Source of the DNA: Armatimonadota bacterium | GTDB taxonomy: Bacteria; Sysuimicrobiota; Sysuimicrobiia; Sysuimicrobiales; Sysuimicrobiaceae | Assembly: GCA_025059775.1 (NCBI GenBank) | Contig: JANXCW010000003.1 | Location: forward strand, 80,284 to 144,283 | DNA length: 64,000 nt | Direction: 5' to 3' | Shown here: piece by piece, positions 1,990 through 62,206 of the stretch | Position numbering within the stretch: the stretch's first letter is position 1 | Layout of the letters: each line of letters opens with the position of its first letter | The notes under the pieces: model-generated | What the model saw: only the letters and a program-made list of their open reading frames with translations | Told to the model about the DNA's origin: nothing | Database searches by the model: none | Made by a program: the position numbers and the translations under genes

Positions 1990-2385
1990 CGAATGGCTTG
2001 CCCTTCCCCGGACGGTGAACCGGAAAAGCCCCCTGGCCACGTATCCGTCATCCGCGGAGACCGCGACCCACCGGACCGTGTAGGTTCCCGGGGCCAGACG
2101 CCGCACCCGGACCATGAGACTCCGCCGATCCAGGTCCTCCAGGTCCACGCCACCCCGGGCAACTAGGCGTCCCCGCGGATCCAGGACCTCGATCCGACTC
2201 CTGGAGGGATCTAGCTCCTCGTTGAACCAGGCGCGGACCACGGAAGGGGGAATGAAGAGCACGGCCCCATTCTGAGGGGTCGACCCCACCAATCGGGCGT
2301 GGGCGGACAGCGGGAGATGGTAGACTCCCACCAGCAGCAGGAGGAAAAGAGCTCGTCCGATTCCCTTCCTGATCGGTTCGCTCAC
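1708..2385 (-). CDS. CopC-domain copper-binding protein with a low-complexity C-terminal extension
   Basis: GTG start overlaps the TGA of the upstream gene (GTGA). N-terminal hydrophobic signal, then CopC hallmarks (HARLVGSTPQNGAVL ... YTVRWVAVSADDGY..GLFRFTV). The last ~100 aa are P/G/R-rich and overlap the 3' end of the convergent TPP gene. Confidence 0.6.
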   Translation of the reverse strand: MSEPIRKGIGRALFLLLLVGVYHLPLSAHARLVGSTPQNGAVLFIPPSVVRAWFNEELDPSRSRIEVLDPRGRLVARGGVDLEDLDRRSLMVRVRRLAPGTYTVRWVAVSADDGYVARGLFRFTVRGRASHSLPSPLLPDGHVHEVWPSLLPGLPKGITHHIPEGTRLLHSNPPRAVSPGHGRMIEARKLDAGKSREGLRGPQELPDPDLHREVFAVVENHHQHR

Positions 2386-4235
2386 GGGGACAGCAGCAGG
2401 AGGGCGTCGCTCACGGGGCGCTCTCCCGTCTCATCGGATGGCCGGTTCCACACCCGGCCGTGGACCACGAGGGTGGTGGAGCCGCCGCCATCGAGGTTCA
2501 AGGCTTCTACGGCACCCAACCGCCGCATCTCCGCGGCGAGCTCTGGAATGGTCATCCCCAGGCTGTGCTCGGGGGCGCGCCCGTCCACCACGAGGAGGAT
2601 CACGGTACCGTCCGGATCCACCCCGATCGCGGTCCGCGGATGCCTCCGGTAGAGGAACGCCTCCGGAAACCCTTCCGGATCCGGTACCGGTTGGCCCCGT
2701 CTCAGCAGCCTCGGACCTCCGCACAGGATGTCCCGTACCTGTTGCCAGCGGGGATCTCCGGAGGAGGGCTCCGCGCGAATCCGCACGTGCACGGGATCCC
2801 CGACTCGGAGTCTGGCGAGCAACGCCCCGGGAGCCCCGTGACCGGAGAGGACAAATCCGTCAGGGGGGACCCAGGCCGGCGGCGCCTCTCGGACCTCCTG
2901 GACCATCCCCCCAGAAACCACCACCTCCACACCCCTCACCTGGACCCGGGGGGTTCCGCCGAACCGGGGGGTAAACAGCACCACCTCACCGGATCCCCGC
3001 GTGCGGTTGAGTCCTTGGATCGGGATGGTTGCCCAAGCGGTCACCGCTTCCGCCCTCCACTCCAGCGTGTCGAACACCACCTCCTGCGTGTCCGTGATCC
3101 CGAGGCACGAACGGCCGGGGAGGGGTTCGCTCGCCCATTCCCTTTGGATCATCACCCCTCCCACCGGATCTCCCTCCGGAGCGAAGTACCCGCCGTTCAC
3201 CGCGGCCACGGCTCCGGATCGCTGCGCGATGGCGGAGGTTCGCTCCCGCCCCATTACCCGGTCCTGGGCAAGGGCCACCCGAAGCCTTCCGCTTCCCCTC
3301 GTGATCCGGAGGGTGGCCGTCCACTGGGGTCCGGGCAGGGAGTCGAAGTCACGCAGGGTGGAGATGACCCACGTAGGATAGCCTTCCTCCGCGAGACGGG
3401 TACGAAGGAATTCCGCCTCCACCCGGCTCCCAAACGACCCCACCCGCACCTTCGCGAGCCCGTCGAGGAGGTCCACGAAAACGGGAAGTCCCCGCTTCCG
3501 GATCTCCTGGGCCAGACGGTGAGCGTTCTGGAGGGACGCAAAAGCCCCCACCTGCACCCGCCAGACGGGCAGCGTCCGCAACGCTCCCCGTTTCTCCACC
3601 GTCAGCAGCACGCCGGGGCGAAGGAGGTGCAGTACGCGCAGACGGGTGCCGTTCTCCAGGGCCTGGAGTAGGGTCCAGATCAGGAAGGCTCCTTCCGTCC
3701 GGCTGACGTGGGCCAGGGGGCGGAACCTGCGGGAGGAGGGGTCTGGGAGGAGGGAGGGACGGCTGAGGAGGGCTACCGCTACTGCTCCTCGGTAGGAGGG
3801 AGAGATCCGATCGAGATCCTCGAACGGGAGCGGATGGTCCGCGAGGGCGGCGGCCTCCCACGCGTGTCCCAGGGCCCGCACCGTCCACAGGATCGCGTCC
3901 TGTCGGGTAAGGGGGGCGTGCGGCCGGAACAGCCCCTGCACGTTGAGGATTCCGTGAGCCAGGGCCGCGTGCACGAAGGGCGCCATCTCCCGAGGCACGT
4001 CCGGGAGCGGTGTGCGGACTCCGGAATCCAGCGGCAGGCCCTTCGCGCGCACCAGCCACCGCACGTACTCTCCCCGCAGCACGGGGCGGAGGTGCTTCTC
4101 CTCGGCGGATTCCAGAATCCCGCGCTCCGCGAGGAGGGCCAGAGGATCCCCGGTCCGGAGGGATTTCTCCGTCGGCCCCGGGAAGGAACCCGTCCCAAGC
4201 GCAATGGCCAACGCGAGCGCCACGGGAATCCGCAT
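2382..4235 (-). CDS. SLH-domain / SPOR-domain phosphodiester glycosidase family protein (cell-wall anchored)
   Basis: Signal peptide, three SLH-like repeats (..FVHAALAHGILNVQGLFRPHAPLTRQDAILW..; FEDLDRISPSYRGAVAVALL), a SPOR-like segment (RVQVGAFASLQNAHRLAQEIRKRGLPVFV..VRVGSFGSRVEAEFLR) and a C-terminal phosphodiester-glycosidase/NAGPA motif (ALNLDGGGSTTLVV). Confidence 0.8.
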   Translation of the reverse strand: MRIPVALALAIALGTGSFPGPTEKSLRTGDPLALLAERGILESAEEKHLRPVLRGEYVRWLVRAKGLPLDSGVRTPLPDVPREMAPFVHAALAHGILNVQGLFRPHAPLTRQDAILWTVRALGHAWEAAALADHPLPFEDLDRISPSYRGAVAVALLSRPSLLPDPSSRRFRPLAHVSRTEGAFLIWTLLQALENGTRLRVLHLLRPGVLLTVEKRGALRTLPVWRVQVGAFASLQNAHRLAQEIRKRGLPVFVDLLDGLAKVRVGSFGSRVEAEFLRTRLAEEGYPTWVISTLRDFDSLPGPQWTATLRITRGSGRLRVALAQDRVMGRERTSAIAQRSGAVAAVNGGYFAPEGDPVGGVMIQREWASEPLPGRSCLGITDTQEVVFDTLEWRAEAVTAWATIPIQGLNRTRGSGEVVLFTPRFGGTPRVQVRGVEVVVSGGMVQEVREAPPAWVPPDGFVLSGHGAPGALLARLRVGDPVHVRIRAEPSSGDPRWQQVRDILCGGPRLLRRGQPVPDPEGFPEAFLYRRHPRTAIGVDPDGTVILLVVDGRAPEHSLGMTIPELAAEMRRLGAVEALNLDGGGSTTLVVHGRVWNRPSDETGERPVSDALLLLSP

Positions 4236-4815: not shown

Positions 4816-4941
4816 AAATCCCCCAATCGAGACAAATGGTTTTCGATTGCCTATTCGAACTCAATGAGCGGGATCCTGCGAACCTGGCAAGGAAGTTGCT
4901 GGAATTCCGACAGCGGATCTGGAAAACATTTGATCGCATTA

Positions 4942-5037: not shown

Positions 5038-5607
5038 ATGGGCCGGCTGGTGGCGGAGGTTCTGCGCACGTTCGGATTACGGGTTTACGAGGCCCGCACG
5101 GCCGCGGGGCTCTCGCAGCGGGCGCTGGCGAGGCTGCTGGGCTTGCGGAGCGCGGTAGCGGTGGGAGACTGGGAACGGGGTAAGGCCTTCCCCAAGTTCC
5201 TCACCTTCCTTCGCTTGTGTGAGGTCCTCAACCGGCCCCCGGCGTATTTTCTGGAGGGCTATACGGAAGCCCCCGCTCAGGAGGGGACCGTGGAGGCGCT
5301 GGAGCGCCTGGAGGCGAAGCTGCACCAGCGTCATCTGGAGCTCCTCCACCGGCTGGAGCAGTTGCCCGCGGAAATCAGTGGGTGCATACCTCCCGACGAA
5401 ATCCTCTCCTTCCTGCAGAAGATGGACTTCGAGCGGGATGTGCTCCCACACCTCCCCCTCGACCTCCGCGCCGCCCTTCGGGCCCGGAAGCTTCCCCCCG
5501 AATTCGAGGAGGCCGCTTACAGCATCGCCCGCAACGCCGCCTGGCATGCCTGGGAGGTGACCCGTGAGGAGGTTCGGGATTGGGTCCGGAAGCGGAGAAG
5601 GGTCTGA
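5038..5607 (+). CDS. XRE-family helix-turn-helix transcriptional regulator with uncharacterised C-terminal domain
   Basis: ATG 5038 after GAGGAGGGG. N-terminal HTH_XRE signature (RTAAGLSQRALARLLGLRSAVAVGDWERGKAFPKFLTFLRLCEVL). A GTG at 5023 is possible but has a worse RBS. Confidence 0.75.
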   Translation: MGRLVAEVLRTFGLRVYEARTAAGLSQRALARLLGLRSAVAVGDWERGKAFPKFLTFLRLCEVLNRPPAYFLEGYTEAPAQEGTVEALERLEAKLHQRHLELLHRLEQLPAEISGCIPPDEILSFLQKMDFERDVLPHLPLDLRAALRARKLPPEFEEAAYSIARNAAWHAWEVTREEVRDWVRKRRRV

Positions 5608-6381: not shown

Positions 6382-6945
6382 ATGAACATCGTCCTCACGG
6401 CCAAGAACGTGACGCTCAACGAGCATCTGCGCCAGTATGCAACGAAGAAAATCGAACGGCTGGCCCGGTTCTTTGACCACGTTCAGGAGGCAAAGGTGGT
6501 CCTCCGGACCAGCCGGGATCGCAACCAGGGACGCGAATCCCTCGTGGAGGTCACGGTGTACGGAGACGGTTTTGTGCTGCGGGGGGAGGAGGCCGCGCCG
6601 GACTTCTTCGCGGCCGTGGACCTGGTGTCCGAAAAACTGGAGCGGCAGATCCAGAAGGTACGGGACCGCTGGATCCACAAGCGCCGTCTGGACGAGGCCC
6701 GCCGGCGGCGCCAGGAGGAGGTGGAGGCGGAGGAGGCGCGAAGGGCCGAGGAGTTCCCGGAACCCCTTCCGCAGATCGTGCGCCGCAAGCAGCTCACCAC
6801 CAAACCCATGACGGAAGAGGAGGCCACCGTCCAGATGGAGCTGCTGGGCCACAGCTTCTTCGTGTACCGGGACGCGGACACGGGACACGTTCGGGTGCTG
6901 TACCGTCGGCGGGACGGGCAGCTGGGCCTCCTCGAGGTGGAATGA
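6382..6945 (+). CDS. hpf: Ribosome hibernation-promoting factor, long form
   Basis: MNIVLTAKNVTLNEHLRQYATKKIERLARFFDHVQEAKVVLRTS... (RaiA/HPF N-domain) plus the C-terminal dimerisation domain of long HPFs (TEEEATVQMELLGHSFFVYRDADTGHVRVLYRRRDGQLGLLE). GGGAG RBS 6 nt upstream. Confidence 0.9.
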   Translation: MNIVLTAKNVTLNEHLRQYATKKIERLARFFDHVQEAKVVLRTSRDRNQGRESLVEVTVYGDGFVLRGEEAAPDFFAAVDLVSEKLERQIQKVRDRWIHKRRLDEARRRRQEEVEAEEARRAEEFPEPLPQIVRRKQLTTKPMTEEEATVQMELLGHSFFVYRDADTGHVRVLYRRRDGQLGLLEVE

Positions 6946-8016: not shown

Positions 8017-10680
8017 ATGCTGAAGACTCTGGCGAGGCTGTTCGGGCGGGGAGAGGACGCGGCGGTGCGCCGCTACCTGCCTGCGGTGCAACGCATCAAC
8101 GGGCTGGAACCGGAGTTCGAGCGCCTCTCGGACGAGGCCCTGCGGGCCAAGACGGAGGAGTTCCGGACCCGCCTGCGCTCCGGCGAGACCCTGGATGATC
8201 TCCTCCCCGAGGCCTTTGCCGCGGTGCGGGAGGCCAGCAAGCGCACCCTCGGGCTCAGACACTTTGACGTCCAGCTCATCGGCGGCATCGTGCTGCACGA
8301 GGGCAAGGTGGCGGAGATGAAAACGGGGGAAGGGAAGACCCTGGTGGCCACCCTGCCCGTCTACCTCAACGCGCTTTTAGGCCGCGGGGTGCACGTGGTC
8401 ACCGTCAACGACTACCTGAGCCGCCGGGACGCGGGCTGGATGGGGCCCATCTACCATACCCTGGGGCTGCGGGTGGCGGCCATTGCGCATGAGTTCAGTG
8501 GCCTCTACGATCCCGCCTACCAGGACCCCAAGCCCCATGCGGACGACCGCCTGAACCACTTCCGTCCCATCTCCCGACGGGAGGCCTACCTGGCGGACGT
8601 CACCTACGGTACCAACAACGAGTTCGGATTCGACTACCTCCGGGACAACATGGCCCTGCGTCCAGAGGACATCGTGCAGCGGGAGCTCTACTACGCCATC
8701 GTGGACGAGGTGGACTTCATCCTCATCGACGAGGCCCGTACCCCCCTCATCATCTCCGGGCAGTTGGAGGAATCCACCCGCAAGTACTACGAGTTTGCAC
8801 GCTTGGTGCGTCGACTGCGCCTCGGTGAGGACTACACCGTGGACGAGAAGCTGAAGACCGCCACCCTCACGGAAGCGGGGATTCGGAAGGTGGAGCAGAT
8901 GCTGGGGGTGGACAACCTCACAGACCCGGAGCACCTGGACCTCATGCATCACGTCCACCAGGCCCTGCGGGCCCATGCCTGCTACAAGCGGGACGTGGAC
9001 TACGTGGTGAAGGATGGCCAGGTGATCATCGTGGACGAGTTCACGGGCCGGCTCATGTTCGGCCGGCGGTACGCGGATGGACTGCACCAGGCCATCGAGG
9101 CCAAGGAGGGCGTGCGGATCGAGCGGGAGACCCAGACCCTAGCTACCATCACCCTCCAGAACTACTTCCGCATGTACGAGAAGCTGGCGGGCATGACGGG
9201 GACCGCGAAGACGGAGGAGGAGGAGCTCCGAAAGATCTACGGTCTCGAGGTGGTGGTGATCCCTACCCACAAGCCCATGATCCGAGTGGATCTCCCGGAC
9301 CTGGTGTTCAAGACGGAGGCGGCCAAGTGGCGGGCCGTGGTGCAGGAGATCAAGGAGTGCTACCAGAAGGGCCGTCCCGTGCTGGTGGGGACCCGGTCCA
9401 TCGAGAAGAGCGAAATGCTGTCCCGGATGCTGCGTCAGGAGGGGGTTCCGCACCAGGTGCTCAACGCCAAGTACCACGAGAGGGAGGCGGAGATCATCGC
9501 CCAGGCCGGACGCCTGGGAGCCGTCACCATCGCCACCAATATGGCGGGCCGCGGGGTGGACATCCTCCTCGGCGGCAATCCCCCGGATCCGGAGGAAGCA
9601 GAGAAGGTCCGGCAGCTCGGGGGGCTGCACGTGATCGGCACGGAGCGACACGAGGCCCGGCGCATCGACAACCAGCTGCGAGGGCGCTCCGGCCGCCAGG
9701 GGGATCCCGGCAGCAGCCGGTTCTATGTCTCCGCGGAGGACGAGCTCCTGCGCCTGTTCGGAGGCGAACGCATCGCGGCCATCATGGATCGGTTCCGCAT
9801 CGACGAGGATACCCCTATCGAGAGCCCGTTGCTTACCCGACAGATTGAGGCGGCGCAGAAGCGGGTGGAGCAGTATCACTTCGACATCCGCAAGCACCTT
9901 CTGGAGTACGACGATGTGATGAACGTGCAGCGGCAGACCCTCTACCGGGAGCGCCGCAAGGTGCTCTTCGGCGAGAACCTCCGAGAGAACGTGCTGGACA
10001 TGATGGAGCGGGTCGTGGCGGAGGTGGTGGAGACCTACTGCCCCGCCTCCCTTCCCCGCGAGGAGTGGGATCTGGAGGGCATGCTCCAGGAGCTGGAGCA
10101 GCTGGCACCTGTTCCGGAGATCCTGGCCATTTCCCTCCAGGACCTGGCGGGCCGTTCCCGGGAGGAGACTCAGGAGATCCTCACCACAGCCGTGCTCCGG
10201 GCCTATGAAGCCAAGGAGGAGGCGGTGGGCCCGGAGGTGATGCGGGAGGTGGAGCGGATAGTACTCCTCTCCCACATCGATCGCAAGTGGATAGACCACC
10301 TGTATGCCATGGACGAGTTGCGGGAGGGGATCGGGCTAAGGGCCTACGGACAGGTAAGCCCGCTGGTGGAGTACCAGCGGGAGGCGTACGAGATGTTCCA
10401 GCAGATGCTGCGGGCCATCCAATCCGACACCGTCCGGGACCTCCTCCGGGTGCGGGTGGAGCGCGAGATCCCCCGCGTCCTCCGACCCGTGGCCCGCATT
10501 ACTGCCCAGGCGGGTCCGGACGCGGACCGCATCCTGGGAGCCCTCCCGGCCTCCACCGACCGCGCGGCGACTCCCCCCAAGCCCCAGCCTGTGGTGGTGG
10601 GGGCCAAGGTGGGGCGCAACGACCCCTGCCCCTGCGGCAGCGGTAAGAAATACAAGAAGTGCTGCGGCCGGGAATCCTGA
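8017..10680 (+). CDS. secA: Preprotein translocase ATPase SecA
   Basis: ATG 8017 after AAAGGGAGTGAG. Full-length SecA signatures throughout (Walker [31 protein letters not shown]). C-terminal zinc-binding [14 protein letters not shown] tail. Confidence 0.95.
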
Positions 10681-10753: not shown

Positions 10754-11879
10754 ATGACGTATGCTACCCTGGACGAACTGCGGGCCCAGGTAGGTGAGGA
10801 CCTGGCGCGACTCCGGGAGATCAGGGGGCACCTTTGACCTGGATCGCATCCGGCGCCGCATCCAGGAGCTGGAGGAGGCAGCTGCCCGCCCCGAGGTGTG
10901 GTCGGATCCGGAGCGGGCCCGGGAGGTAGGCCGGGAGCTGGGGCGCCTCCGCGCGCAGCTGGTGGCCTTCGAGGCGCTGGAACGGGGGCTCCTGGACCTG
11001 GAGGAGCTGCTGATCCGGGGGCCGGAGGATCCTGAGGAGCTCGGGCTTTTATGGGAGGAGGCCCAGACCCTACACGCCCGGCTGGAGCGGCTGGAGATCG
11101 AGACCCTGCTCTCCGGTGAGCACGATCCCTCCAACGCCATCCTCTCCATCCACGCGGGCGCGGGAGGGACGGACTCCCAGGACTGGGCGGAGATGCTCCT
11201 CCGGATGTACCTGCGGTGGGCTGTCTCCAAGGGGTACGAGGCAGAGGTGGTGGACCTCTCCTTGGGCGAGGAGGCGGGGATTAAGAGCGCCACGGTGATG
11301 GTGCGGGGGCCGTATGCCTACGGGTACCTGAAGGCGGAACGGGGGACCCATCGCCTGGTGCGCATCTCGCCCTTTGACGCGGCCCACCGGCGTCACACCT
11401 CCTTCGCCCTGGTGGAGGTTCTCCCAGAGGTGGAGCCCGTGACGGTGGACATTCGGCCGGAGGATTTGCGGATAGAGACCTTCCGGTCCCGGGGGGCCGG
11501 CGGGCAGAACGTGAACAAGGTGGAGACCGCGGTCCGCATTACGCACCTGCCCACGGGGATCGTGGTGCAGTGTCAGAACGAGCGCAGCCAGCACGCCAAC
11601 CGGGAGACCGCCCTTCGCCTCCTCGCCGCCCGCCTATACGAGCACTACCGACGGGAGCAGGAGAGGAAATTGCAGCAGCTGCGGGGGGAACACCGCGATG
11701 CCTCCTGGGGGAACCAGATCCGTTCATACGTCCTCCATCCATATACCCTCGTGAAGGACCACCGGACGGGCGTGGAGACGGGGAACGTGCAGGCGGTGCT
11801 CGAGGGCGAGCTGGATCCCTTCATCTACGCCTACCTGCGGGCTCAGGCGGCCACAGACCGGGTTCGGGCAAGAGGATAG
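10754..11879 (+). CDS. prfB: Peptide chain release factor 2, expressed via programmed +1 ribosomal frameshift
   Basis: Frame 0 runs from ATG 10754 ([27 protein letters not shown]) into an in-frame UGA at 10835-10837 within AGGGGGCAC-CUU-UGA-C. The +1 frame from GAC 10836 continues [14 protein letters not shown]... through SPF and GGQ ([23 protein letters not shown]) to TAG 11877-11879. Confidence 0.9.
10821..10838 (+). promoter_or_regulatory. RF2 autoregulatory +1 frameshift site (internal SD-like AGGGGG, then CUU UGA C)
   Basis: Canonical arrangement. The SD-like AGGGGG sits 3 nt before the CUU slippery codon, followed by UGA and C. Confidence 0.85.
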
Positions 11880-11881
11880 GG

Positions 11882-13900
11882 GTGCGGCTTCTTCCCCCCT
11901 TGATCCTCCTGGGTCTTTTCGCCTCCCTCGCGGTAGTCTGGGAGCGCCACGGGGTGGAAGCTCCCTACCGCACCGTGGAGCTCGTCCTCGACAGCGAGGG
12001 CTGGCGGCTCGTGGCCAGGCGGGAGGGCCTGGAGGAGGAGGGGTTCTGGCGGACGCTGCGGGAGGCGGGAGCCACCAGCGTGGCGGTGTACGAGCAGACC
12101 CTGCGGCGCCTGGAGGATGCGGGGTTGGTGGCGGTCCTCGATGGCCCGGAACTGCTGGCGCAGGCGCGGACCGGCCGCCTCTCTGCGGCTCTCTCCGCCC
12201 TGACGCGTCGGCCGGACCTCCTCCGGTCCGTATACGTACTGCCACTTCGACCCGACGTGGCCACCCTGGTGGAGCAGGGCTTTCGGAACGCCCTGGGAGC
12301 CCACCGGATCCGCCTCGTGCTCCGGAATCCCCTCGTGTACGAGCTCCTCGGGTGGCGCAAGGATCTGGAGGAGGTCGGCCTCGGGTTCCTTCCCTGGGAG
12401 GTCCGGCGATGGGAGCGGCGGGGGTTCTGGGTGGTCCTGCGGCCCCGGAACGTGCGGACCCTGGATGCGGAACGCCTGCGGGAACGGGTCCGGGCATACG
12501 GAACGCTGGGACATGGTCTCACCCTGATCTTCGAGGGGGTGGAGGTTCTCGGGTACGAACACCTGATCCCTCAGGCGGCCGCGGTCCTCCGGGAGATCGG
12601 CGCGGTCTACGGACGGGTGGAGGTCCTCACCGCGGCGCGCCGGATGCGGGGAGAGCAGAGCCTGGCGGTCCGGATGATGCCTCGGGTGGTGCGGGTGTTC
12701 AGCATCGGACAGGACGAACTAGATCGCATGAACCCTCCGGCGGCCCGGGAGCGGTTCCTGCGGGCGGCCCGGGAGCGCAACCTCCGGATCCTCTACATTC
12801 GGCCGTTCCAGTCTGTGCCCGGAGGCGTGGATCCCGTGGCGTACAACCTCCACTACCTCCGATCCCTCGTCGCCGACCTGCAGACCGCCGGTTTCCAGCG
12901 CGGACGGGCGGCTCCGCTTCCGATGCTGCGGCTTCCGCGCCCCGTGCTGTACGCCGCGGGGTTAGGGGCCGTAGCGGCGGGTGTGCTCTCGCTCGTCCTC
13001 CTCGTCGGGAGGACTTGCTCTCCCCTCGGAGCGGTGGTCCTGGTGGGCGCGGGATGGGTTGGACTTTTGGGGCTGGGTATGGTCTCCGAGCTGTGGGCGC
13101 GCAAGCTCACGGCCCTCCTGAGTGCCGTGGTCATCCCCCCCCTCGCGATCCACGCAGGTCTACCCCGGGGCGGACCGCGGGCGGTCTCCGGAGGTCGGGT
13201 GCTGCTGGAGGCCGTGGGCCGGCTGTGGCTTATCTCCCTGGGATCCACCGCGGGGGGATTCCTGGTGGCCGCGCTGCTCACGGACTGGCCCTTCCTGCTG
13301 GCCTTCGAGGTCTTCTTCGGGGTGAAGGCGGCCACCGTCCTCCCCCTCGTCCTGATCCTGCTGTTGGAGCTCTCGGAGCCGACAACCGCCGACCCTCCGT
13401 GGCGGAGGCTGTGGCGGGCCATGGACCGGCCCCTCTCCCTTCGAACAGCCCTGATCCTGGTGGTGCTGGGATCCGCGGGCTTGCTGTTGGTGCTGCGTAC
13501 CGGCAACGTGAGCCTGCCCATGCTCGATCTGGAGGAGCGACTGCGTACGGCGTTGGAGACGGCCATGGGAGCCCGGCCCCGCACGAAAGAGTACCTGGTG
13601 GGCCACCCCGCCCTGCTGCTCGGCGTTGCCGCGTATCTCGTGGGTATGCGGCGATGGGGCCTCCCCCTGGTCGTGGTGGGAGCCGTCGGGCAGGCGGGAC
13701 TCGTGAACTCCTTCGCCCACCTCCACACCCCCATCCTCTATACCCTCTGGCGCACCGCCAACGGTCTGCTGCTGGGAACCGTGATCGGGGTGGCGGTCTG
13801 GGTAGTGGCGTGGTTCCTCCTCCGGCCCCGGGGGCTCCTTCCCGCCCCCGGGCATCCTGTGCTGGTGCAGGCCGCGATTCGCGAACAGCTCCCTCCCTAG
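11882..13900 (+). CDS. Large membrane protein (N-terminal anchor, extracytoplasmic domain, C-terminal polytopic domain); resembles the DUF5693-type proteins that precede csaB
   Basis: GTG 11882, 3 nt after the prfB stop. N-terminal hydrophobic anchor (LLPPLILLGLFASLAVVW). The last ~250 aa hold multiple predicted TM helices. Family assignment is tentative, by gene neighbourhood (immediately upstream of csaB). Confidence 0.55.
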   Translation: MRLLPPLILLGLFASLAVVWERHGVEAPYRTVELVLDSEGWRLVARREGLEEEGFWRTLREAGATSVAVYEQTLRRLEDAGLVAVLDGPELLAQARTGRLSAALSALTRRPDLLRSVYVLPLRPDVATLVEQGFRNALGAHRIRLVLRNPLVYELLGWRKDLEEVGLGFLPWEVRRWERRGFWVVLRPRNVRTLDAERLRERVRAYGTLGHGLTLIFEGVEVLGYEHLIPQAAAVLREIGAVYGRVEVLTAARRMRGEQSLAVRMMPRVVRVFSIGQDELDRMNPPAARERFLRAARERNLRILYIRPFQSVPGGVDPVAYNLHYLRSLVADLQTAGFQRGRAAPLPMLRLPRPVLYAAGLGAVAAGVLSLVLLVGRTCSPLGAVVLVGAGWVGLLGLGMVSELWARKLTALLSAVVIPPLAIHAGLPRGGPRAVSGGRVLLEAVGRLWLISLGSTAGGFLVAALLTDWPFLLAFEVFFGVKAATVLPLVLILLLELSEPTTADPPWRRLWRAMDRPLSLRTALILVVLGSAGLLLVLRTGNVSLPMLDLEERLRTALETAMGARPRTKEYLVGHPALLLGVAAYLVGMRRWGLPLVVVGAVGQAGLVNSFAHLHTPILYTLWRTANGLLLGTVIGVAVWVVAWFLLRPRGLLPAPGHPVLVQAAIREQLPP

Positions 13901-13903
13901 CCC

Positions 13904-14947
13904 ATGCGGGCGGTGGTCCTGGGCTACTATGGCTTCGGCAACGTAGGAGACGAGGCGGTGCTGTGGGCCATGCGCCAGCACCTGCGGGAGGTTCTTCCGA
14001 ACCTCCGGCTCTGTGTGCTCTCCGCGGACCCTGAGGCCACATCCGCCCTGCACGGCACGGAGAGCGTCCTGCGCACGGATCCCAAAGGGGTGCGGCGGGC
14101 CATGCGGGAAAGTGTGGTGGTCCTGAGCGGCGGAGGTAGCCTCTTCCAGGACGCCACCAGCTGGCGGAGCCCACTCTACTACGCCTGGCTGCACGAGCTC
14201 GCCGCCAGGGAACGCAGGCCCCTGGTGGTGTACGCGCAGGGCATAGGCCCCCTCCGGCGGCGCCTCAGTCGGTGGACGACCCGACGGGCCATGGGACACG
14301 CCGCGCGCCTCACGGTGCGGGATGCCCCAAGCGCCCGACTCCTCAGACACCTCGGCGTGCGGGACCCCGTCGAGGTAGTCTGCGATCCCGTCCTCGGGTT
14401 GCCGACTCCCGGGCCCGGAGAGGGCTCCCCGTGGATCGGCGTCTCCCTCCGTCCCTGGCCGGGGGTATCCCTAGATCCCATCGTCGAGGCCATCGCGAGG
14501 CTTCAGGACGAGGTCGGAATTCCGGTACGGGTGGTGTGCTTCCACGAAAGCATGGATCGGGGGCTGAACGAAGTCCTGGCCCGCCGGGTGCGGGCCGAGG
14601 ACCTCGTGGTGGTGCGCTCGCCCCAGGAGGCTTGGCGGGTCTTCTGCGGCGCGGGTCTCGTGGTGGCCATGCGGCTCCATGCCCTCCTCTTCGCGGCCCT
14701 GGCAGGGGCCGTTCCCGTGGGTATTGCGTACGATCCGAAGGTTCAGGCCCTGGCGGACCAGCTCCCCGGCTTGGAGGTGGTTTCCCTGGAGGAACTCTCC
14801 CGCGGCCTGTGGGGGGCCGTGGAGCGCGCGTGGCGGGATCGGGAGTCCAGAGTGGAGCAGCTGCGGAAGGCGGTTCCCCCGCTTTCAGCCCGGGCCCGGC
14901 TCCCCGCCCGGGCCGTCGCCGCCTTGTTGGGGGGTGTACCCCTCTAG
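13904..14947 (+). CDS. csaB: Polysaccharide pyruvyl transferase CsaB
   Basis: MRAVVLGYYGFGNVGDEAVLWAMRQHL..SGGGSLFQDATSW.. typical of CsaB/PS_pyruv_trans. Starts 4 nt after the upstream stop. Confidence 0.85.
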   Translation: MRAVVLGYYGFGNVGDEAVLWAMRQHLREVLPNLRLCVLSADPEATSALHGTESVLRTDPKGVRRAMRESVVVLSGGGSLFQDATSWRSPLYYAWLHELAARERRPLVVYAQGIGPLRRRLSRWTTRRAMGHAARLTVRDAPSARLLRHLGVRDPVEVVCDPVLGLPTPGPGEGSPWIGVSLRPWPGVSLDPIVEAIARLQDEVGIPVRVVCFHESMDRGLNEVLARRVRAEDLVVVRSPQEAWRVFCGAGLVVAMRLHALLFAALAGAVPVGIAYDPKVQALADQLPGLEVVSLEELSRGLWGAVERAWRDRESRVEQLRKAVPPLSARARLPARAVAALLGGVPL

Positions 14948-14953
14948 GGACGG

Positions 14954-15724
14954 ATGGGCGGACGGGTGTGGGTCCTGGGAGTTCCCTTCGACCCTGTAGA
15001 TCTGGAGGGTGCGGTGGCGGCGTGCATCCGCATGGTGGCCGACGGGCGGCCGCACCTGGCGGTCACCGCCAATCCCGAGGCGGTGGTCCGGGCCCAGGAC
15101 GATCCGGAGTTTGCGGAGATACTCCGGAGGGCGGATCTCGTGGTCGCGGATGGAATCGGCGTGGTGTGGGCGTCCCGGAGGCTGGGGCAGCCGCTGCCCA
15201 TGCGGGTCCCCGGCATCGAGCTCATGGAGGCCCTCTGCGCCCACGCGGCGCGCGCAGGGCTGAGGGTGTTCCTGCTGGGCGGAGCCGAGGGAGTGGCAGA
15301 GCAGGCAGCCCGCACCCTCCTCCGAAATCACCCCGGCCTGCGGATTGCGGGCACCCACCACGGGTACTTCCCGGACGACGGACCGGTGGTCGAGCGGATC
15401 GCGGAGAGCCGCGCGGACCTGCTGTTCGTGGGGATGGGGATGCCCCGGCAGGAGAAGTGGTTGAGCCGCCACCTTCCCGAGCTCGGGGTACGGCTGGCCA
15501 TGGGGGTGGGCGGGAGCCTGGATGTGCTCGCGGGCCGGGTCCGCCGGGCACCGGGCTTTGTACAGCGGGTGCACCTGGAGTGGCTGTACCGCCTCCTGCA
15601 GGAACCCCGCCGGTGGCGCCGCCAACTCGCCCTGGTGCGTTTCGTGTGGCTGGTCCTCCGGAGGGGAGAGGAGAAGCCAGGGGGAAGGCGGAATACAAAC
15701 ACGCGACAGGACACGCGGGGGTGA
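14954..15724 (+). CDS. WecB/TagA/CpsF-family glycosyltransferase (N-acetylmannosaminyltransferase-like)
   Basis: VLGVPFDPVDLEGAV...ANPEAVV...DLVVADGIGVVWASRRLG..PRQEKWL... matches the TagA/WecG family. Confidence 0.85.
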   Translation: MGGRVWVLGVPFDPVDLEGAVAACIRMVADGRPHLAVTANPEAVVRAQDDPEFAEILRRADLVVADGIGVVWASRRLGQPLPMRVPGIELMEALCAHAARAGLRVFLLGGAEGVAEQAARTLLRNHPGLRIAGTHHGYFPDDGPVVERIAESRADLLFVGMGMPRQEKWLSRHLPELGVRLAMGVGGSLDVLAGRVRRAPGFVQRVHLEWLYRLLQEPRRWRRQLALVRFVWLVLRRGEEKPGGRRNTNTRQDTRG

Positions 15725-15728
15725 GTCG

Positions 15729-16031
15729 GTGCCGGAGGTGCTGAAGGTCTCTGCGGAGTCAAACCCGAAGGCGGTGGCCGGAGCCATCGCGGCGATCCTG
15801 CGGGAGCACGGATCCGTGGAGCTGCAGGCGATCGGAGCCGGTGCCGTGAACCAAGCGGTGAAGGCCATCGCCATCGCACGGGGGTTCGTGGCGCCCAACG
15901 GCCTGGAGATCGTGGTGGTCCCCGCCTTCACCAAGGTCCTCATCAACGGCGAGGAGCGGACCGCCATCCGGTTCCTGGTGGAGGCGCGGCGGTCGGGCCG
16001 GGCGAGCGCACCCCCGTCGGACCGCGCCTAA
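15729..16031 (+). CDS. spoVS: Stage V sporulation protein S homologue
   Basis: GTG 15729 after GGGGGTGAG, 4 nt after the tagA-like stop. VLKVSAESNPKAVAGAIAAILREHGSVELQAIGAGAVNQAVKAIAIARGFVAPNGLEIVVVPAFTKVLINGEERTAIRFLVE is a near-textbook SpoVS sequence. Confidence 0.85.
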   Translation: MPEVLKVSAESNPKAVAGAIAAILREHGSVELQAIGAGAVNQAVKAIAIARGFVAPNGLEIVVVPAFTKVLINGEERTAIRFLVEARRSGRASAPPSDRA

Positions 16032-16061
16032 GAGCCGCCACGTGGTAGGATCCGGTTGGGG

Positions 16062-17003
16062 ATGGACTACGGACCCCTGAAGGTCTTCTCCGGAACCGCG
16101 AACCCTGGTCTGGCACAGGAGATCGTGGACTACCTGGAGATCCCCATGGGCCGGGTCTACATCCGACGGTTCGCGGATGGGGAGATCTACGTGCGGTACG
16201 AGGAGAACGCCCGGGGGGTGGACGCCTTCGTGGTCCAGCCCCTGTGCCATCCCGTGAACGAGAACCTGATGGAGCTCCTCATCATGCTCGACGCCCTCCG
16301 CCGGGCCAGCGCGGGGCGGATCACCGCGGTGATCCCGTACTACGCGTACGCGCGGCAGGACCGGAAGTCCGCACCCCGGGAGCCGATCTCCGCGCGCCTG
16401 GTGGCCGACCTGCTCACGGTGGCGGGGATCCATCGGGTGCTCACCATGGACCTGGATGCGGACCAGATCGAGGGGTTCTTTACCGTCCCCGTGGACCACC
16501 TGCGGGCCCTCCCCCTGTTCGCGGAGGCCCTCCGGCAGCGTCAGATCTCGGACGGGGTGGTGGTGGCGCCGGACGACGGCGCAGTGAAGCAGGCCAAGCG
16601 CCTCGCGGATCGTCTCGGCCTGCCACTTGCGGTGGTGTTCCAGCGCAGGGCCGAGGGCGGCAAGACGCCGGTGCAGCTGGTGGGCGAGGTGGAGGGGCGC
16701 ACGCCCATCCTCATCGACCGGATGATCGCCACGGCGGAGACGGTGGAGGTGGCGGTAGAGGCGCTGCTGCGGGCAGGGGCGCGGCCGGAGGTGTACCTGT
16801 GTGCCACGCATCCCATCCTGGCTCCGGGAGCCCTGGAACGGCTCGCCCGCCCGGAGATCCGGGAACTCCTGGTGACGAACACCATTCCGGTGGCCGAGGA
16901 GAAGCGGCGAGCCAACATCACAGTGCTTTCCGCAGCACCGTTGCTGGCGGAGGCCATCCGCCGCATCCACGCGGATCAGTCCGTGAGCGCCCTGTTCACG
17001 TAA
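16062..17003 (+). CDS. prs: Ribose-phosphate pyrophosphokinase
   Basis: LKVFSGTANPGLAQEIVDYLEIPMG...DGEIYVRYEENARGVDAFVVQ..VNENLMELLIMLDALRRASAGRITAVIPYYAYARQDRK.. is the canonical PRPP synthetase. A TTG at 16056 is also possible. Confidence 0.95.
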   Translation: MDYGPLKVFSGTANPGLAQEIVDYLEIPMGRVYIRRFADGEIYVRYEENARGVDAFVVQPLCHPVNENLMELLIMLDALRRASAGRITAVIPYYAYARQDRKSAPREPISARLVADLLTVAGIHRVLTMDLDADQIEGFFTVPVDHLRALPLFAEALRQRQISDGVVVAPDDGAVKQAKRLADRLGLPLAVVFQRRAEGGKTPVQLVGEVEGRTPILIDRMIATAETVEVAVEALLRAGARPEVYLCATHPILAPGALERLARPEIRELLVTNTIPVAEEKRRANITVLSAAPLLAEAIRRIHADQSVSALFT

Positions 17004-17027: not shown

Positions 17028-18545
17028 ATGAGCGTTCGGACGCGGTACGCGCCGAGCCCCACGGGGTTCCTGCACGTGGGCGGAGCGTGGAACGCCTTCT
17101 TCAACTGGCTGTTCAGCCGCCACCACGGAGGTGTCTTCGTACTCCGCATCGAGGACACGGACCGCTCCCGCTCCACCGTGGAATACGAGCAGGCCATCTG
17201 TGAGGATCTGCGGTGGCTGGGGATCGACTGGGACGAGGGTCCGGACGTGGGCGGACCCTACGGTCCTTACCGCCAGACGGAGCGGAGGGAGCTCTACGCC
17301 CGCTACGCGGAGGAGTTCCTGCGCCGGGGAGTCGCCTACCCGTGTTACTGCACCCCCGAGGAACTCCTGGCGGAACGACGGCGGGCGGAGGCAGAGCGCC
17401 GACCTCCTCGATACTCCGGCCGGTGCCGGAACCTGGACGATGCGGAACGTGCGAGGCTGCAGGCGGAGGGCCGGCGGCCGGCGCTGCGGTTTCACGTGGA
17501 GCAGTTCCGAAATCCCTCCCTCGGAGATCCCGGGTGGCTGCAGGAACGGGAAGGGCGGAGGGCGGTGGTGGTCCAGGACCTCATCCGAGGGGAGGTCGTG
17601 TTTGACCTCGCGGAGCTCGATGACTTCCTCATCGTGCGTTCGGACGGTACCCCGCTGTACAACTTCGCGAACGTGGTGGACGACCACACCATGGCCATCA
17701 CCCACGTCCTGCGGGGCGTGGAGCACCTGGGGAACACCCCCCGTCAGCTTCTCATGTACCACGCCCTGGGCTGGACTCCCCCCGCCTTCGCCCACCTCCC
17801 CGTCCTCCTGGGGCCGGACCGGAAGAAGCTCAGCAAGCGACACGGGGATACCGCCCTCCGGGAGTACCGGGACGAGCTCTTCCTGCCGGAGGCCCTGCGG
17901 AACTTCTTCGCCCTCCTGGCCTGGTATCCGGAGGACGGCCGGGAGCTCTTCCCCACAGAGGAGCTCATCGAGCGGTTCGACATCCGGGAGCTCAAGGGTG
18001 CGAGCCCCGTGTTCGACCGGCAGAAGCTCGTGTGGATGAACGGAGAGTACCTGCGTCAGTTGCGGCAATCTGACCCTGATCGGCTCGTGGACCTAGCGAC
18101 CGCCTACCTGGTCCGACGGGGACTGCTGGAAGAGCCGGTGACGGAGGCGGAGCGAAGCCTGGTGCGGCGGGTGATCGGGATCCTGGGTGACCGGCTGAAG
18201 GTGGGATCCGATCTAGTGCTCTACGCGGATTTCTTCTTCCTGGACCGACCCCGCTACGACCCTCAGGCGGTGGCCAGGTATCTCGCGGGCGCGTCCGAGC
18301 TCCTGGCCGAGGTGCGGGCGACCCTGGAGCCCGTGGACCCCTTCCACGCGGACCGCATCGAGCAGGCCCTCCGGGCGTTCGCAGAGGCTTCCGGGCTCGG
18401 GATGCGGGCGGTGGTGCATCCGGTGCGGGTAGCCCTGACCGGACGGACGGTGGGCCCCGGGCTGTTCGAGCTCATGGAGGTACTGGGAAAGGAGCGGGTG
18501 CTGCGACGGCTGGAAGAGGCCCGAGCCCTGGCAGGGGTGGCGTAG
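17028..18545 (+). CDS. gltX: Glutamate--tRNA ligase
   Basis: RYAPSPTGFLHVGGAWNAFFNW (HIGH region) and KLSKRHG (KMSKS). Zinc-binding CYC..C motif region. GGGAGGAGGA RBS. Confidence 0.95.
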   Translation: MSVRTRYAPSPTGFLHVGGAWNAFFNWLFSRHHGGVFVLRIEDTDRSRSTVEYEQAICEDLRWLGIDWDEGPDVGGPYGPYRQTERRELYARYAEEFLRRGVAYPCYCTPEELLAERRRAEAERRPPRYSGRCRNLDDAERARLQAEGRRPALRFHVEQFRNPSLGDPGWLQEREGRRAVVVQDLIRGEVVFDLAELDDFLIVRSDGTPLYNFANVVDDHTMAITHVLRGVEHLGNTPRQLLMYHALGWTPPAFAHLPVLLGPDRKKLSKRHGDTALREYRDELFLPEALRNFFALLAWYPEDGRELFPTEELIERFDIRELKGASPVFDRQKLVWMNGEYLRQLRQSDPDRLVDLATAYLVRRGLLEEPVTEAERSLVRRVIGILGDRLKVGSDLVLYADFFFLDRPRYDPQAVARYLAGASELLAEVRATLEPVDPFHADRIEQALRAFAEASGLGMRAVVHPVRVALTGRTVGPGLFELMEVLGKERVLRRLEEARALAGVA

Positions 18546-18548
18546 CGG

Positions 18549-18594
18549 GCCGGAGGCGTTTGACAGAGGAGGCCGGAGGCGTTTGACAGAGGAG
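18549..18594. repeat. Tandem 23-bp direct repeat x2 (GCCGGAGGCGTTTGACAGAGGAG), each copy containing TTGACA
   Basis: Two adjacent identical copies seen directly, right after the gltX stop and upstream of the tRNA genes. Confidence 0.8.
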
Positions 18595-18612
18595 GCGGAG
18601 TTCGGGAATAAT
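18583..18612 (+). promoter_or_regulatory. Sigma-A-type promoter for the tRNA-Gln/tRNA-Glu genes (-35 TTGACA, 18-nt spacer, -10 AATAAT)
   Basis: TTGACA at 18583-18588 (a second copy at 18560-18565 in the upstream repeat unit), AATAAT at 18607-18612, tRNA-Gln starts at 18626. Confidence 0.5.
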
Positions 18613-18625
18613 GATGGGCGGCCGG

Positions 18626-18699
18626 TGGGGGATCGTCTAACGGTAGGACAACGGGCTCTGGACCCGTTAGTGGAGGTTCGAATCCTCCTCCCCCAGCCA
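18626..18699 (+). tRNA. tRNA-Gln (anticodon CUG), CCA encoded
   Basis: Acceptor stem TGGGGGA/TCCCCCA, anticodon loop CTCTGGA (CTG), T-arm GGAGGTTCGAATCCTCC, discriminator G, then genomic CCA. Confidence 0.9.
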
Positions 18700-18714
18700 G
18701 CGGCAGCGGTGGGT

Positions 18715-18790
18715 GGCCCCATCGTCTAGAGGCCTAGGATACCGCCCTCTCAAGGCGGAGACGGGGATTCGAATTCCCCTGGGGCCACCA
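18715..18790 (+). tRNA. tRNA-Glu (anticodon CUC), CCA encoded
   Basis: Acceptor stem GGCCCCA/TGGGGCC, anticodon stem CCGCC/GGCGG with loop CTCTCAA (CTC), T-loop ATTCGAAT, discriminator A, then CCA. Confidence 0.9.
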
Positions 18791-62137: not shown

Positions 62138-62206
62138 GATCCGCCTCCTGGTGGCCGACTTCGGGGGAAGAGTTACCCCTTACGCAGAATGAAGGAAGAA
62201 GGGATC

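Follow-up and report, generated by a model that had tools for sequence, protein, structure and literature searches.

[quoted passage not shown] The four ORFs were found where the initial annotation had placed them, all on the forward strand and separated by gaps of 3, 6 and 4 nt, and encode a DUF5693 membrane protein (11882..13900, 672 aa, GTG start), the ketal-pyruvyltransferase for the SLH-binding wall polymer CsaB (13904..14947, 347 aa), a TagA-like WecG/TagA/CpsF glycosyltransferase (14954..15724, 256 aa) and a SpoVS homologue (15729..16031, 100 aa, GTG start). The cluster had also been described as fused to spoVS, which is incorrect, since each ORF stands by itself and the frames differ. 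The genome is a member of the phylum CSP1-3/Sysuimicrobiota and has 87.8% DNA identity to Ca. Sysuimicrobium calidum.

The module sits in a housekeeping block with the order hpf, DUF3048, secA, prfB, module, spoVS, prs, gltX, tRNA-Gln and tRNA-Glu. Upstream, secA (8017..10680, forward strand; assigned from the ORF and synteny in 80 loci) opens a conserved secA–prfB–DUF5693–csaB block, and prfB (10755..11879, forward strand; PCRF and RF-1 domains) is read through a programmed +1 frameshift at CTT TGA C (about 10836–10842), with the DUF5693 ORF starting 2 nt past its stop. Downstream lie prs (ribose-phosphate pyrophosphokinase, 16056..17003, forward strand; assigned by Pfam, synteny and gaps) and gltX (glutamyl-tRNA synthetase, 17028..18545, forward strand; ORF and synteny), which is the final protein-coding gene of the co-directional string and whose name we presume from an N-terminal class-I synthetase signature and the conserved position. 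No terminator or sigma-70-like promoter was found anywhere along this gene string.

The initial annotation's view of the locus as an SCWP pyruvylation cluster is borne out both by family assignments and by the survey of csaB neighbourhoods described below. The csaB product scores 268.2 bits against the TIGR03609 CsaB equivalog (cut-off 213.1), with residues 2–296 aligned to model positions 1–297 of 301, and also matches PF04230 (E 1e-38). The tagA product matches PF03808 (231.9 bits, cut-off 27.4) and TIGR00696 (185 bits, cut-off 69), and its nearest solved structure is TagA 7mpk (E 1.6e-59, residues 4–236). It does not reach the threshold of the TarA equivalog NF041710 (200.7 bits versus a cut-off of 350), and because of this the sugar specificity can only be proposed, with ManNAc as the probable substrate. 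No tagO was found by tblastn with the Pontibacillus TagO as query, whether in the 64-kb window or among the 80 loci. The gene set is ordinary and widely conserved, and serves to make the pyruvate-tagged wall sugar by which surface proteins are anchored.

The fourth gene is identified by a match to PF04232 of 131 bits (E 1e-38, residues 3–85 on model positions 1–83 of 83), a match to the Thermus SpoVS-related protein PDB 2eh1 (E 2.6e-28) and 72–97% identity across relatives. SpoVS belongs to a nucleic-acid-binding family with a predicted Alba fold that is also found in non-sporulating phyla (PMC2732212). The tagA stop codon (TGA, 15722–15724) is followed 4 nt on by the spoVS start, and a Shine-Dalgarno-like GGGGG run lies 8–12 nt 5′ of that start. 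This 4-nt gap is found only in the window and in the congener L001, and in every relative outside the genus the spacer 5′ of spoVS, measured from tagA or csaB, is 27–304 nt. A C-terminal alignment places 11–15 more residues at the end of TagA in the window and L001 than in relatives, covering the old spacer, and conservation is lost over this tail (about 15 aa). The alignment shows the 4-nt gap in this genus as the apparent outcome of the tagA frame extending through a spacer with a putative promoter.

The putative promoter in question is a two-box motif, RNAGGA(G/A)TT–11/12 nt–NNGGAATAG, which occurs 32–99 nt 5′ of the spoVS start in 42 of the 54 upstream regions, taken from 53 relatives and the window, and which matches the sigma-H consensus RNAGGAWWW/RNNGAATWW, the one used for Bacillus thuringiensis spoVS. 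In B. thuringiensis, spoVS1 and spoVS2 are sigH-dependent and SigH binding was seen in EMSA (PMC8510167). When 1.2 Mb was scanned on both strands, 53 of the 62 PWM hits of at least 18 bits were located 5′ of spoVS. The window retains a weakened copy, AGAGGAGAA–12 nt–GCGGAATAC, within the 3′ end of tagA (15667..15696, forward strand; located by regex and by a PWM from relatives), which ends 32 nt 5′ of the spoVS start, is without the conserved TT of the −35 box and scores 11.7 bits. In the 64 kb, both strands included, just three sites reach 11 bits, this one among them. Both boxes are the same in L001, where the spacer differs at two positions, and the family nearest to the window's genus (L002–L007) has no recognisable motif. 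The window copy is probably a remnant of, or a weak, spoVS promoter, and both the promoter function and the sigma factor are what we infer from the motif. Compared with spoVS of Bacillus subtilis and B. thuringiensis, the protein family is the same and the sigma-H −35/−10 consensus is matched by the motif of this phylum, but the window differs in its spoVS–prs–gltX context and in having a degenerate motif. The phylum is uncultivated, and sporulation is not mentioned in PMC11604079.

The two boxes might instead be a regulator's operator or part of a structured 5′ leader, given that the sigma-H assignment in this phylum is a consensus match only, that in many relatives conservation continues after the motif with CGTCGCAGCATTCGAGGAGGC, and that hairpins, found by reading the sequences, overlap the first box in some of them. 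We regard this as unlikely, as a spacer fixed at 11–12 nt but variable in sequence, together with the 32–99 nt to the start codon, is the geometry of a promoter, and both boxes fit the published sigma-H consensus. Furthermore, the other two top PWM sites in the window also each precede a gene on their own strand, with 27 and 110 nt to the start, and no Rfam family matches the region.

As a promoter, the motif would place spoVS at the head of the next unit, spoVS–prs–gltX, with its own sigma-H-type promoter across the phylum, and spoVS is probably the first gene of such a unit. Only within this phylum-level clade does spoVS–prs–gltX come after the module, with prs next to spoVS in nearly all relatives with enough downstream flank, and the context regarded as unusual in the initial annotation is how the clade normally arranges these genes. 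That annotation also tied spoVS functionally to the envelope genes. On this view, spoVS would work within an envelope operon, sharing a transcript and translational coupling with tagA, and its product would regulate or coordinate the expression of wall-polymer or envelope genes. Such a link is suggested by the 4-nt gap, by the Shine-Dalgarno-like run overlapping the end of tagA, by the uninterrupted gene string, by the 47 loci, of 60 with enough flank, where spoVS comes after csaB or tagA, and by B. subtilis spoVS mutants, for which raised sigma-D-directed expression, cell separation and autolysis are cited in PMC2732212. We nevertheless find it improbable, because the tight spacing is confined to this genus and is replaced elsewhere by the longer spacers with their promoter-like motif, spoVS is nearer to prs (commonly 0–60 nt), the adjacency is missing in all outgroups that keep DUF5693–csaB–tagA, those with secA–prfB in front included, and the whole secA-to-gltX block is an inherited housekeeping gene order. 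In Bacillus, spoVS presumably follows rny–ymdB and is not beside wall-polymer genes, which also counts against the link. A promoter or terminator separating spoVS from tagA had been named beforehand as part of what would undo the link, and relatives do show such a feature, a sigma-H-like promoter motif ahead of spoVS. As no terminator was found, read-through co-transcription of spoVS with the upstream genes is likely in this genome, and here the gene may depend mainly on the upstream operon; in this genus, spoVS would be transcribed by read-through and from the weakened internal promoter, probably both. Read-through is a local accident of gene packing and not evidence for shared function.

Returning to the module itself, csaB was found directly 3′ of DUF5693 in 63 of the 65 genome loci with enough flank, drawn from several phyla and including CSP1-3, Halanaerobiales, Saganbacteria/WOR-1, Margulisiibacteriota, Symbiobacterium and other Bacillota, with gaps mostly between −4 and +7 nt. 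The exceptions are L064 and L079, in which rnc and not csaB comes after DUF5693. The csaB and tagA genes are adjacent and co-directional, separated by 6 nt in the window and by −4 to +8 nt in nearly all tagA-bearing relatives (there are three larger outliers). A permuted order, csaB–tagA–tagO–DUF5693, is found on a Pontibacillus replicon, DUF5693–csaB–tagA lies away from secA–prfB in Acetoanaerobium, and metagenome contigs carry (LmeA–)DUF5693–PS_pyruv_trans, one of them adjoining lpxB. Judged by this gene order, DUF5693–csaB(–tagA) is a real and deeply conserved module.

The large membrane protein was also correctly counted as a member of the cluster, as the domain search returned DUF5693 and no unrelated known function. 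The match to PF18949 is full length (429.9 bits, E 2e-128, residues 30–645 on model positions 1–607 of 609), and the protein has the family architecture of an N-terminal anchor, a soluble domain and a polytopic C-terminus, seen in the AF2 model as a signal-anchor helix (aa 4–26), a (beta/alpha)-barrel (aa ~31–335) and about ten TM helices (aa 353–647). At 50% identity the family falls into about 3,400 clusters, and its members have 630–750 aa, and DUF5693 as a name had no match in the literature we searched. Across 46 sequences, down to 27% identity, 32 positions are invariant, with Arg, Lys, His, Glu and Asn making up most of them, which argues for catalysis or ligand binding, and the conserved motifs RTGN, EERLR, ARPRTKE and FxHxHTP share the barrel's side of the membrane. 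With the outward topology based on a charge count, the protein is confidently predicted to expose, on the exterior of the membrane, a barrel resembling those of carbohydrate enzymes together with a basic site that contains histidine. Neither Foldseek nor sequence searches gave a significant match to solved enzymes. We rejected a PAP2 lipid-phosphate phosphatase (such as the E. coli C55-PP phosphatase PgpB) as the identity of the membrane domain, where the score was barely over noise (next matches 6.9) and KX6RP, PSGH and SRX5HX3D are absent in that form; DUF5693 also differs from these phosphatases in its extra 300-aa barrel. It is very doubtful that DUF5693 is a housekeeping membrane protein tied to secA–prfB, or a passive scaffold, with csaB as a neighbour by inherited order only, since despite the presence of prfB within 1.3 kb upstream in 56 of the 61 loci, the two loci with rnc and the lack of matches to solved enzymes, the csaB link is kept where secA–prfB is not close by and in other gene orders, as in Pontibacillus (with tagO), in Acetoanaerobium and on the contig that adjoins lpxB, the stop and start codons overlap or nearly do so across phyla, and the invariant residues are retained.

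In the pathway we propose for the three-gene module, TagO, encoded elsewhere, would prime undecaprenyl phosphate with GlcNAc-1-P, the TagA-like enzyme would add beta-ManNAc, and CsaB would then move pyruvate from PEP to form a 4,6-ketal on the lipid-linked disaccharide. In a fourth step, the flipped lipid-linked pyruvylated unit would be handled at the outer face of the membrane by DUF5693, which would either polymerise it or transfer it to peptidoglycan. The second and third steps are based on family membership and published in-vitro work on the Paenibacillus alvei enzymes, and we infer the fourth, for which DUF5693 is proposed because of its near-constant pairing with CsaB, the outer-face barrel and the invariant Arg/Lys/His cluster. 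DUF5693 is thus a candidate for the polymer-assembly step. A stronger statement is possible but tentative, namely that the outward-facing enzyme still lacking from pyruvylated SCWP assembly is DUF5693 and, independently, that the pairing of a sigma-H-type promoter with spoVS is conserved in a phylum without known sporulation; the DUF5693 substrate would then be undecaprenyl-pyrophosphate-linked Pyr-ManNAc-GlcNAc, polymerised or moved to peptidoglycan.

The closest known system is the P. alvei locus orf1–csaB–tagA–tagO (Zarschler 2010; Hager 2018, PMC6030368), which resembles the window in the order of an unknown ORF, csaB and tagA. There, TagA makes ManNAc-GlcNAc-PP-lipid, which CsaB pyruvylates in vitro, and while CsaB acts on the lipid-linked disaccharide, polymerisation of the repeats and attachment to peptidoglycan are stated to be an open question (PMC6030368). 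The P. alvei locus includes tagO and adjoins S-layer genes, whereas the locus described here, like the whole 64 kb, is without tagO and lies between prfB and spoVS. In Pontibacillus sp. ALD_SL1 (NZ_CP062975, RefSeq annotation), the same families form one tight overlapping string, csaB – WecB/TagA/CpsF – MraY-family GT – DUF5693, although in that string DUF5693 is last and not first, tagO is included, and the operon is on an 898-kb secondary replicon with no secA–prfB or spoVS nearby. The Pontibacillus DUF5693 has fewer residues (604 aa) and an identity of about 27%. A CsaB-pyruvylated polymer also serves as the SLH ligand, as proposed here, in the Bacillus anthracis csaA–csaB system and in the CsaB–SLH(OmpM) tether of Thermus thermophilus and diderm Terrabacteria, but no OmpM or S-layer gene was seen in the window. 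In B. anthracis, we take the partner of csaB to be csaA, a Wzx-like flippase, and not DUF5693.

CsaB and SLH co-occur across Terrabacteria (bioRxiv 10.1101/2021.05.31.446380), and within the 64-kb window this co-occurrence is provided by the product of 2382..4235 (reverse strand) alone. This is the SLH-bearing glycosidase noted in the initial annotation, a wall-associated NAGPA phosphodiester-glycosidase with Pfam matches to SLH (26.5 bits, threshold 20.8, residues 78–114), SPOR (47.5 bits) and NAGPA (151 bits). It has a single SLH repeat over threshold compared with the typical three in tandem, and the flanking region has room for three degenerate repeats, with none further detected. The enzyme is likely to be a client of the pyruvylated polymer. 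A search with phmmer using the SLH region against all six-frame ORFs, with Pfam run on secreted candidates, found no second SLH protein, S-layer gene or OmpM in the window, a check suggested by the initial annotation.

S-layers and, in diderm Terrabacteria via OmpM, the outer membrane are held on the cell wall by binding to pyruvylated wall polymer. The spoVS result is mainly a caution, in that a 4-nt gap hinted at operon membership and the relatives showed otherwise. TagO, TagA and CsaB have already been characterised, and the most interesting item of the locus is the DUF5693 membrane protein before csaB. Nearly always encoded immediately 5′ of csaB, from Halanaerobiales to Saganbacteria to CSP1-3, DUF5693 is a concrete and testable candidate because of this adjacency across lineages and its predicted outer-face barrel and basic site. 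If true, the link between sigma-H and spoVS would predate, or exist outside, endospore formation, and DUF5693 and CsaB, often with an LmeA-like lipid-binding protein, would form an ancient core of SLH-based tethering across Terrabacteria, diderms included.

The interval 11882–16031 contains four co-directional ORFs on the plus strand of this 68% G+C genome, and the presence of a four-gene cluster, as proposed in the initial annotation, was confirmed by family assignments and by the gene junctions as they stand in the sequence. These ORFs encode a 672 aa protein matching DUF5693 over its full length (11882–13900, +; PF18949, E 2e-128), a 347 aa CsaB which passes the curated TIGR03609 equivalog threshold (13904–14947, +; 268 bits vs 213), a 256 aa WecG/TagA/CpsF glycosyltransferase (14954–15724, +; PF03808, 232 bits) whose closest solved relative is TagA (7mpk, E 1.6e-59), and a 100 aa SpoVS (15729–16031, +; PF04232, E 1e-38; Thermus 2eh1, E 2.6e-28). 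The prfB stop codon is followed after 2 nt by the DUF5693 GTG at 11882, the DUF5693 TAG (13900) after 3 nt by the csaB ATG (13904), the csaB TAG (14947) after 6 nt by the tagA ATG (14954), and the tagA TGA (15724) after 4 nt by the spoVS GTG (15729). To call the cluster fused to spoVS is too strong, since each ORF stands by itself and the frames differ, and a gene fusion between tagA and spoVS is ruled out by this and by the intervening stop codon.

We surveyed related loci with a search anchored on DUF5693 (10-sequence alignment) that confirmed 295 loci; the best 80 were taken, which biases the survey towards relatives of the window, and the positions of the window's eight proteins were determined in every one of them. 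Among these 80 loci, csaB lies directly after DUF5693 in 63 of the 65 with enough downstream sequence, mostly with a gap of -4 to +7 nt (gaps of -97, -199 and -457 nt are artefacts of start-codon choice and were left uninterpreted). The two exceptions come from an Actinomycetota MAG and a UBP8 MAG (L064 5328–8030 and L079 9974–12638), where the order is prfB, DUF5693 and then the RNase III gene rnc. The DUF5693–csaB order extends beyond the window's phylum to Halanaerobiales, Saganbacteria/WOR-1, Margulisiibacteriota, Symbiobacterium and other Bacillota MAGs, with secA–prfB upstream and tagA downstream kept in most of these loci. It is also found in Acetoanaerobium as DUF5693–csaB–tagA with secA–prfB not nearby, and the annotation of a 898-kb Pontibacillus replicon lists overlapping genes in the order csaB, WecB/TagA/CpsF, MraY-family glycosyltransferase and DUF5693. 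Three metagenome contigs carry an (LmeA-like)–DUF5693–PS_pyruv_trans arrangement, one of them adjoining lpxB and an MsbA-like ABC transporter gene. On that contig, L083 (425–9308), the DUF5693–CsaB pair comes directly after the genes for LpxB, the MsbA-like transporter, a DUF374 protein and an M48 peptidase, and this lpxB neighbourhood indicates that the pair is present in an LPS-making diderm organism. Within the best 80 of 295 loci tagA is optional (27/60 loci), and tagO was found neither in these nor in the window. The invariant core of the module is the DUF5693–CsaB pair, and the large membrane protein is part of the cluster, as had been suggested; no unrelated known function was found for it, its domain match being DUF5693.

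Many relatives also have a gene for an LmeA-like (PF11209) phospholipid-binding envelope protein between prfB and DUF5693, immediately upstream of the latter and in distant lineages as well (L031 9297–9980, L013 7601–8269, L025 6598–7302, L060 7505–8233, L084 392–1075 and L085 7075–7794). In L031 it overlaps the DUF5693 start by 4 nt, whereas neither the window nor L001–L007 has it. Two tandem DUF5693 paralogues, ~30% identical, lie ahead of csaB in Symbiobacterium (L060 8381–12415) and a Bacillota MAG (L069 7926–12061).

In the window, the module is preceded by hpf (6382–6945), a DUF3048 lipoprotein gene, secA and prfB, the last with a programmed +1 frameshift of the classical type (10755–10842) in which a short ORF runs from ATG 10755 to CTT TGA C, with a Shine-Dalgarno-like AGGGGG in front, and the main frame continues to 11879. 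After spoVS come prs, gltX, a promoter-like site, tRNA-Gln(CTG) (18626–18699) and tRNA-Glu(CTC) (18715–18790), so that the synthetase gene adjoins genes for the tRNA it charges and possibly one that it mischarges. The promoter-like site directly 3' of gltX (TTGACA-18-AATAAT, within 18583–18790) is near-consensus with 11/12 matches. All intergenic gaps from prfB to gltX are at most about 30 nt, and a scan of this interval for sigma-70 promoters and intrinsic terminators found none that were credible, with hairpins at chance level only; the two tRNAs were the only Rfam matches, with none in the window equivalent of the spoVS upstream region. The nearest relatives of the DUF5693 protein are labelled Armatimonadota MAGs, and the best genome locus is that of Candidatus Sysuimicrobium calidum (L001), which is collinear with the window across 16.9 kb and shares 87.8% nucleotide identity with it, indicating that the window derives from a congener within the uncultivated phylum CSP1-3/Sysuimicrobiota. 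The publication naming this phylum makes no mention of cell wall, S-layer or spores (PMC11604079).

The functional link that had been drawn between spoVS and the cluster is unsupported. A spoVS–prs–gltX string follows the module in 47 of the 60 loci with enough flank among the best 80 of 295, and every one of the 47 belongs to the CSP1-3-like clade. It never does so in the outgroups among these 80, where the place after tagA is taken by a CtpB-like protease, a serine dehydratase or purine genes. In relatives other than L001, spoVS lies 27–304 nt from tagA or csaB, and the spacer contains a two-box element (RNAGGA(G/A)TT, 11 or 12 variable nt, then NNGGAATAG) ending 32–99 nt before the spoVS start in 42 of the 54 upstream regions compared (those of the window and 53 relatives). 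Positions outside the search pattern are also conserved (TT in 39/40 and the first G in 37/40 sites), and a weight matrix built from the sites gave 62 matches of at least 18 bits when both strands of the loci (1.2 Mb) were scanned, 53 of them upstream of spoVS. The element fits the sigma-H consensus RNAGGAWWW / RNNGAATWW; sigma-H promoters reportedly have a spacing of 11–12 nt, and B. subtilis spoVS is said to be sigma-H-dependent. In B. thuringiensis, sigH is needed for spoVS1 and spoVS2, and SigH binds both (PMC8510167). Conservation of a sigma-H-type motif before spoVS outside the Firmicutes, as predicted here, would go beyond the known picture.

TagA is longer by 11–15 residues in the window and L001 than in relatives, and this non-conserved tail is encoded by sequence which is spacer elsewhere; within it is a degenerate copy of the two-box element (AGAGGAGAA-12-GCGGAATAC, 15667–15696, 11.7 bits). 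The 4-nt gap is thus a genus-level result of ORF extension over the former spacer, and the more fitting reading puts spoVS at the head of a spoVS–prs–gltX unit, since the gap to prs is commonly 0–60 nt. A promoter of its own for spoVS finds support in the element of the relatives; the degenerate copy in the window is probably a remnant of such a promoter or a weak one. No credible terminator was found between tagA and spoVS. Read-through from the envelope genes into spoVS is likely in this genome, so some co-expression may occur, though nothing points to a shared function. No protein of the block is more conserved than SpoVS (72–97% identical across the clade). The family occurs in non-sporulating phyla and has a predicted Alba-like nucleic-acid-binding fold (PMC2732212); the name carries no implication of sporulation in this organism.

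Only three two-box sites of at least 11 bits are found in the window, each 27–110 nt upstream of a same-strand gene. The two besides the copy in tagA may be further promoters of this class: one, at 4898–4927 (+), precedes an XRE-type HTH regulator gene (5038–5607) by 110 nt, and the other, at 44849–44878 (+), precedes a family-5 solute-binding protein gene (44906–46429) by 27 nt. A conserved leader, CGTCGCAGCATTCGAGGAGGC, is present between the element and the spoVS start in about 30 loci (e.g., L026 5520–5567) and is longer than needed for a ribosome-binding site. In L002–L007, the family nearest the window's genus, the region ~60–100 nt upstream of spoVS has TTGACA then AGGAAAAG instead of a sigma-H-like -10 box, and the promoter type may have been swapped in this sub-lineage.

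The SLH-anchored glycosidase linked to the cluster in the initial annotation (2382–4235, -) has one SLH repeat, a SPOR domain and a NAGPA phosphodiester-glycosidase domain, and a phmmer search of the window with its SLH region found no second SLH protein, the sensitivity being limited because the query SLH is itself weak. Its combination of SLH, SPOR and NAGPA domains in one protein is unusual; the SPOR domain binds denuded septal peptidoglycan. Anchored to a pyruvylated polymer, such a sugar-1-phosphodiester-cleaving enzyme could trim or release phosphodiester-linked wall polymers. Two further ORFs of 520 and 399 aa (25181–26743, + and 62180–63379, -) have good coding statistics and no Pfam match at E up to 0.001.

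DUF5693 proteins form a family of 3,411 clusters at 50% identity, all about 630–750 aa, and the name was found in no paper of the literature searched. A profile search with distant members recovered the same 51 proteins again, none from Paenibacillus, and a search with the Pontibacillus protein matched itself alone, again with no Paenibacillus member. The AlphaFold model (46 sequences) is confident (pLDDT 90.2, pTM 0.88), with an N-terminal helix, an alpha/beta domain (aa ~31–335) and about ten membrane helices. Foldseek against the PDB gave no match below E 0.01 and generic TIM barrels only, a sequence profile found no solved relative in the PDB, and Pfam searches with each half separately (E up to 10) returned DUF5693 only; PAP2 was weighed for the membrane domain and not adopted. 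Across sequences down to 27% identity 32 residues are invariant, including R187, N190, E247, E298-R299-N300 and R302 in the barrel and K482, R539, E551, R555, R565-P-R567, K569, H613, T616-P617 and R624 in the membrane part. Lys/Arg counts for the short loops over the alignment assign the net-positive loops to the same side as both termini, and the barrel and all conserved membrane motifs to the opposite side, which by the positive-inside rule suggests that the barrel faces outward. The modelled outward-facing site would combine a sugar-binding barrel with a basic, histidine-containing membrane surface, and would suit a pyrophosphate-lipid-linked anionic glycan.

Work on the P. alvei enzymes shows that TagA puts ManNAc on GlcNAc-PP-lipid and that CsaB next pyruvylates the lipid-linked disaccharide, and names polymerisation and ligation of the polymer to peptidoglycan as open questions (PMC6030368). 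The same cytoplasmic steps would be expected here from the family membership of the TagA-like and CsaB proteins, with TagO encoded elsewhere, though we infer the sugar added by the TagA-like enzyme because it falls below the TarA equivalog cut-off (200 vs 350). The interpretation as a wall-polymer pyruvylation cluster is supported by the CsaB and TagA family matches and the conserved DUF5693–csaB(–tagA) linkage, and the cluster belongs among the known CsaB/TagA loci, such as those of P. alvei, B. anthracis (csaAB) and the CsaB–SLH systems across the Terrabacteria (bioRxiv 10.1101/2021.05.31.446380), in a little-studied phylum. It differs from these in having no tagO and in being set inside a secA-to-gltX housekeeping block, and the near-obligatory DUF5693–CsaB pairing, with a predicted outward-facing catalytic architecture, would add to what is known. 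Gene linkage, fold and topology make DUF5693 a candidate for a later, extracytoplasmic step, and the cluster, though ordinary in itself, thus offers a definite candidate for one of the open steps of wall-polymer assembly.
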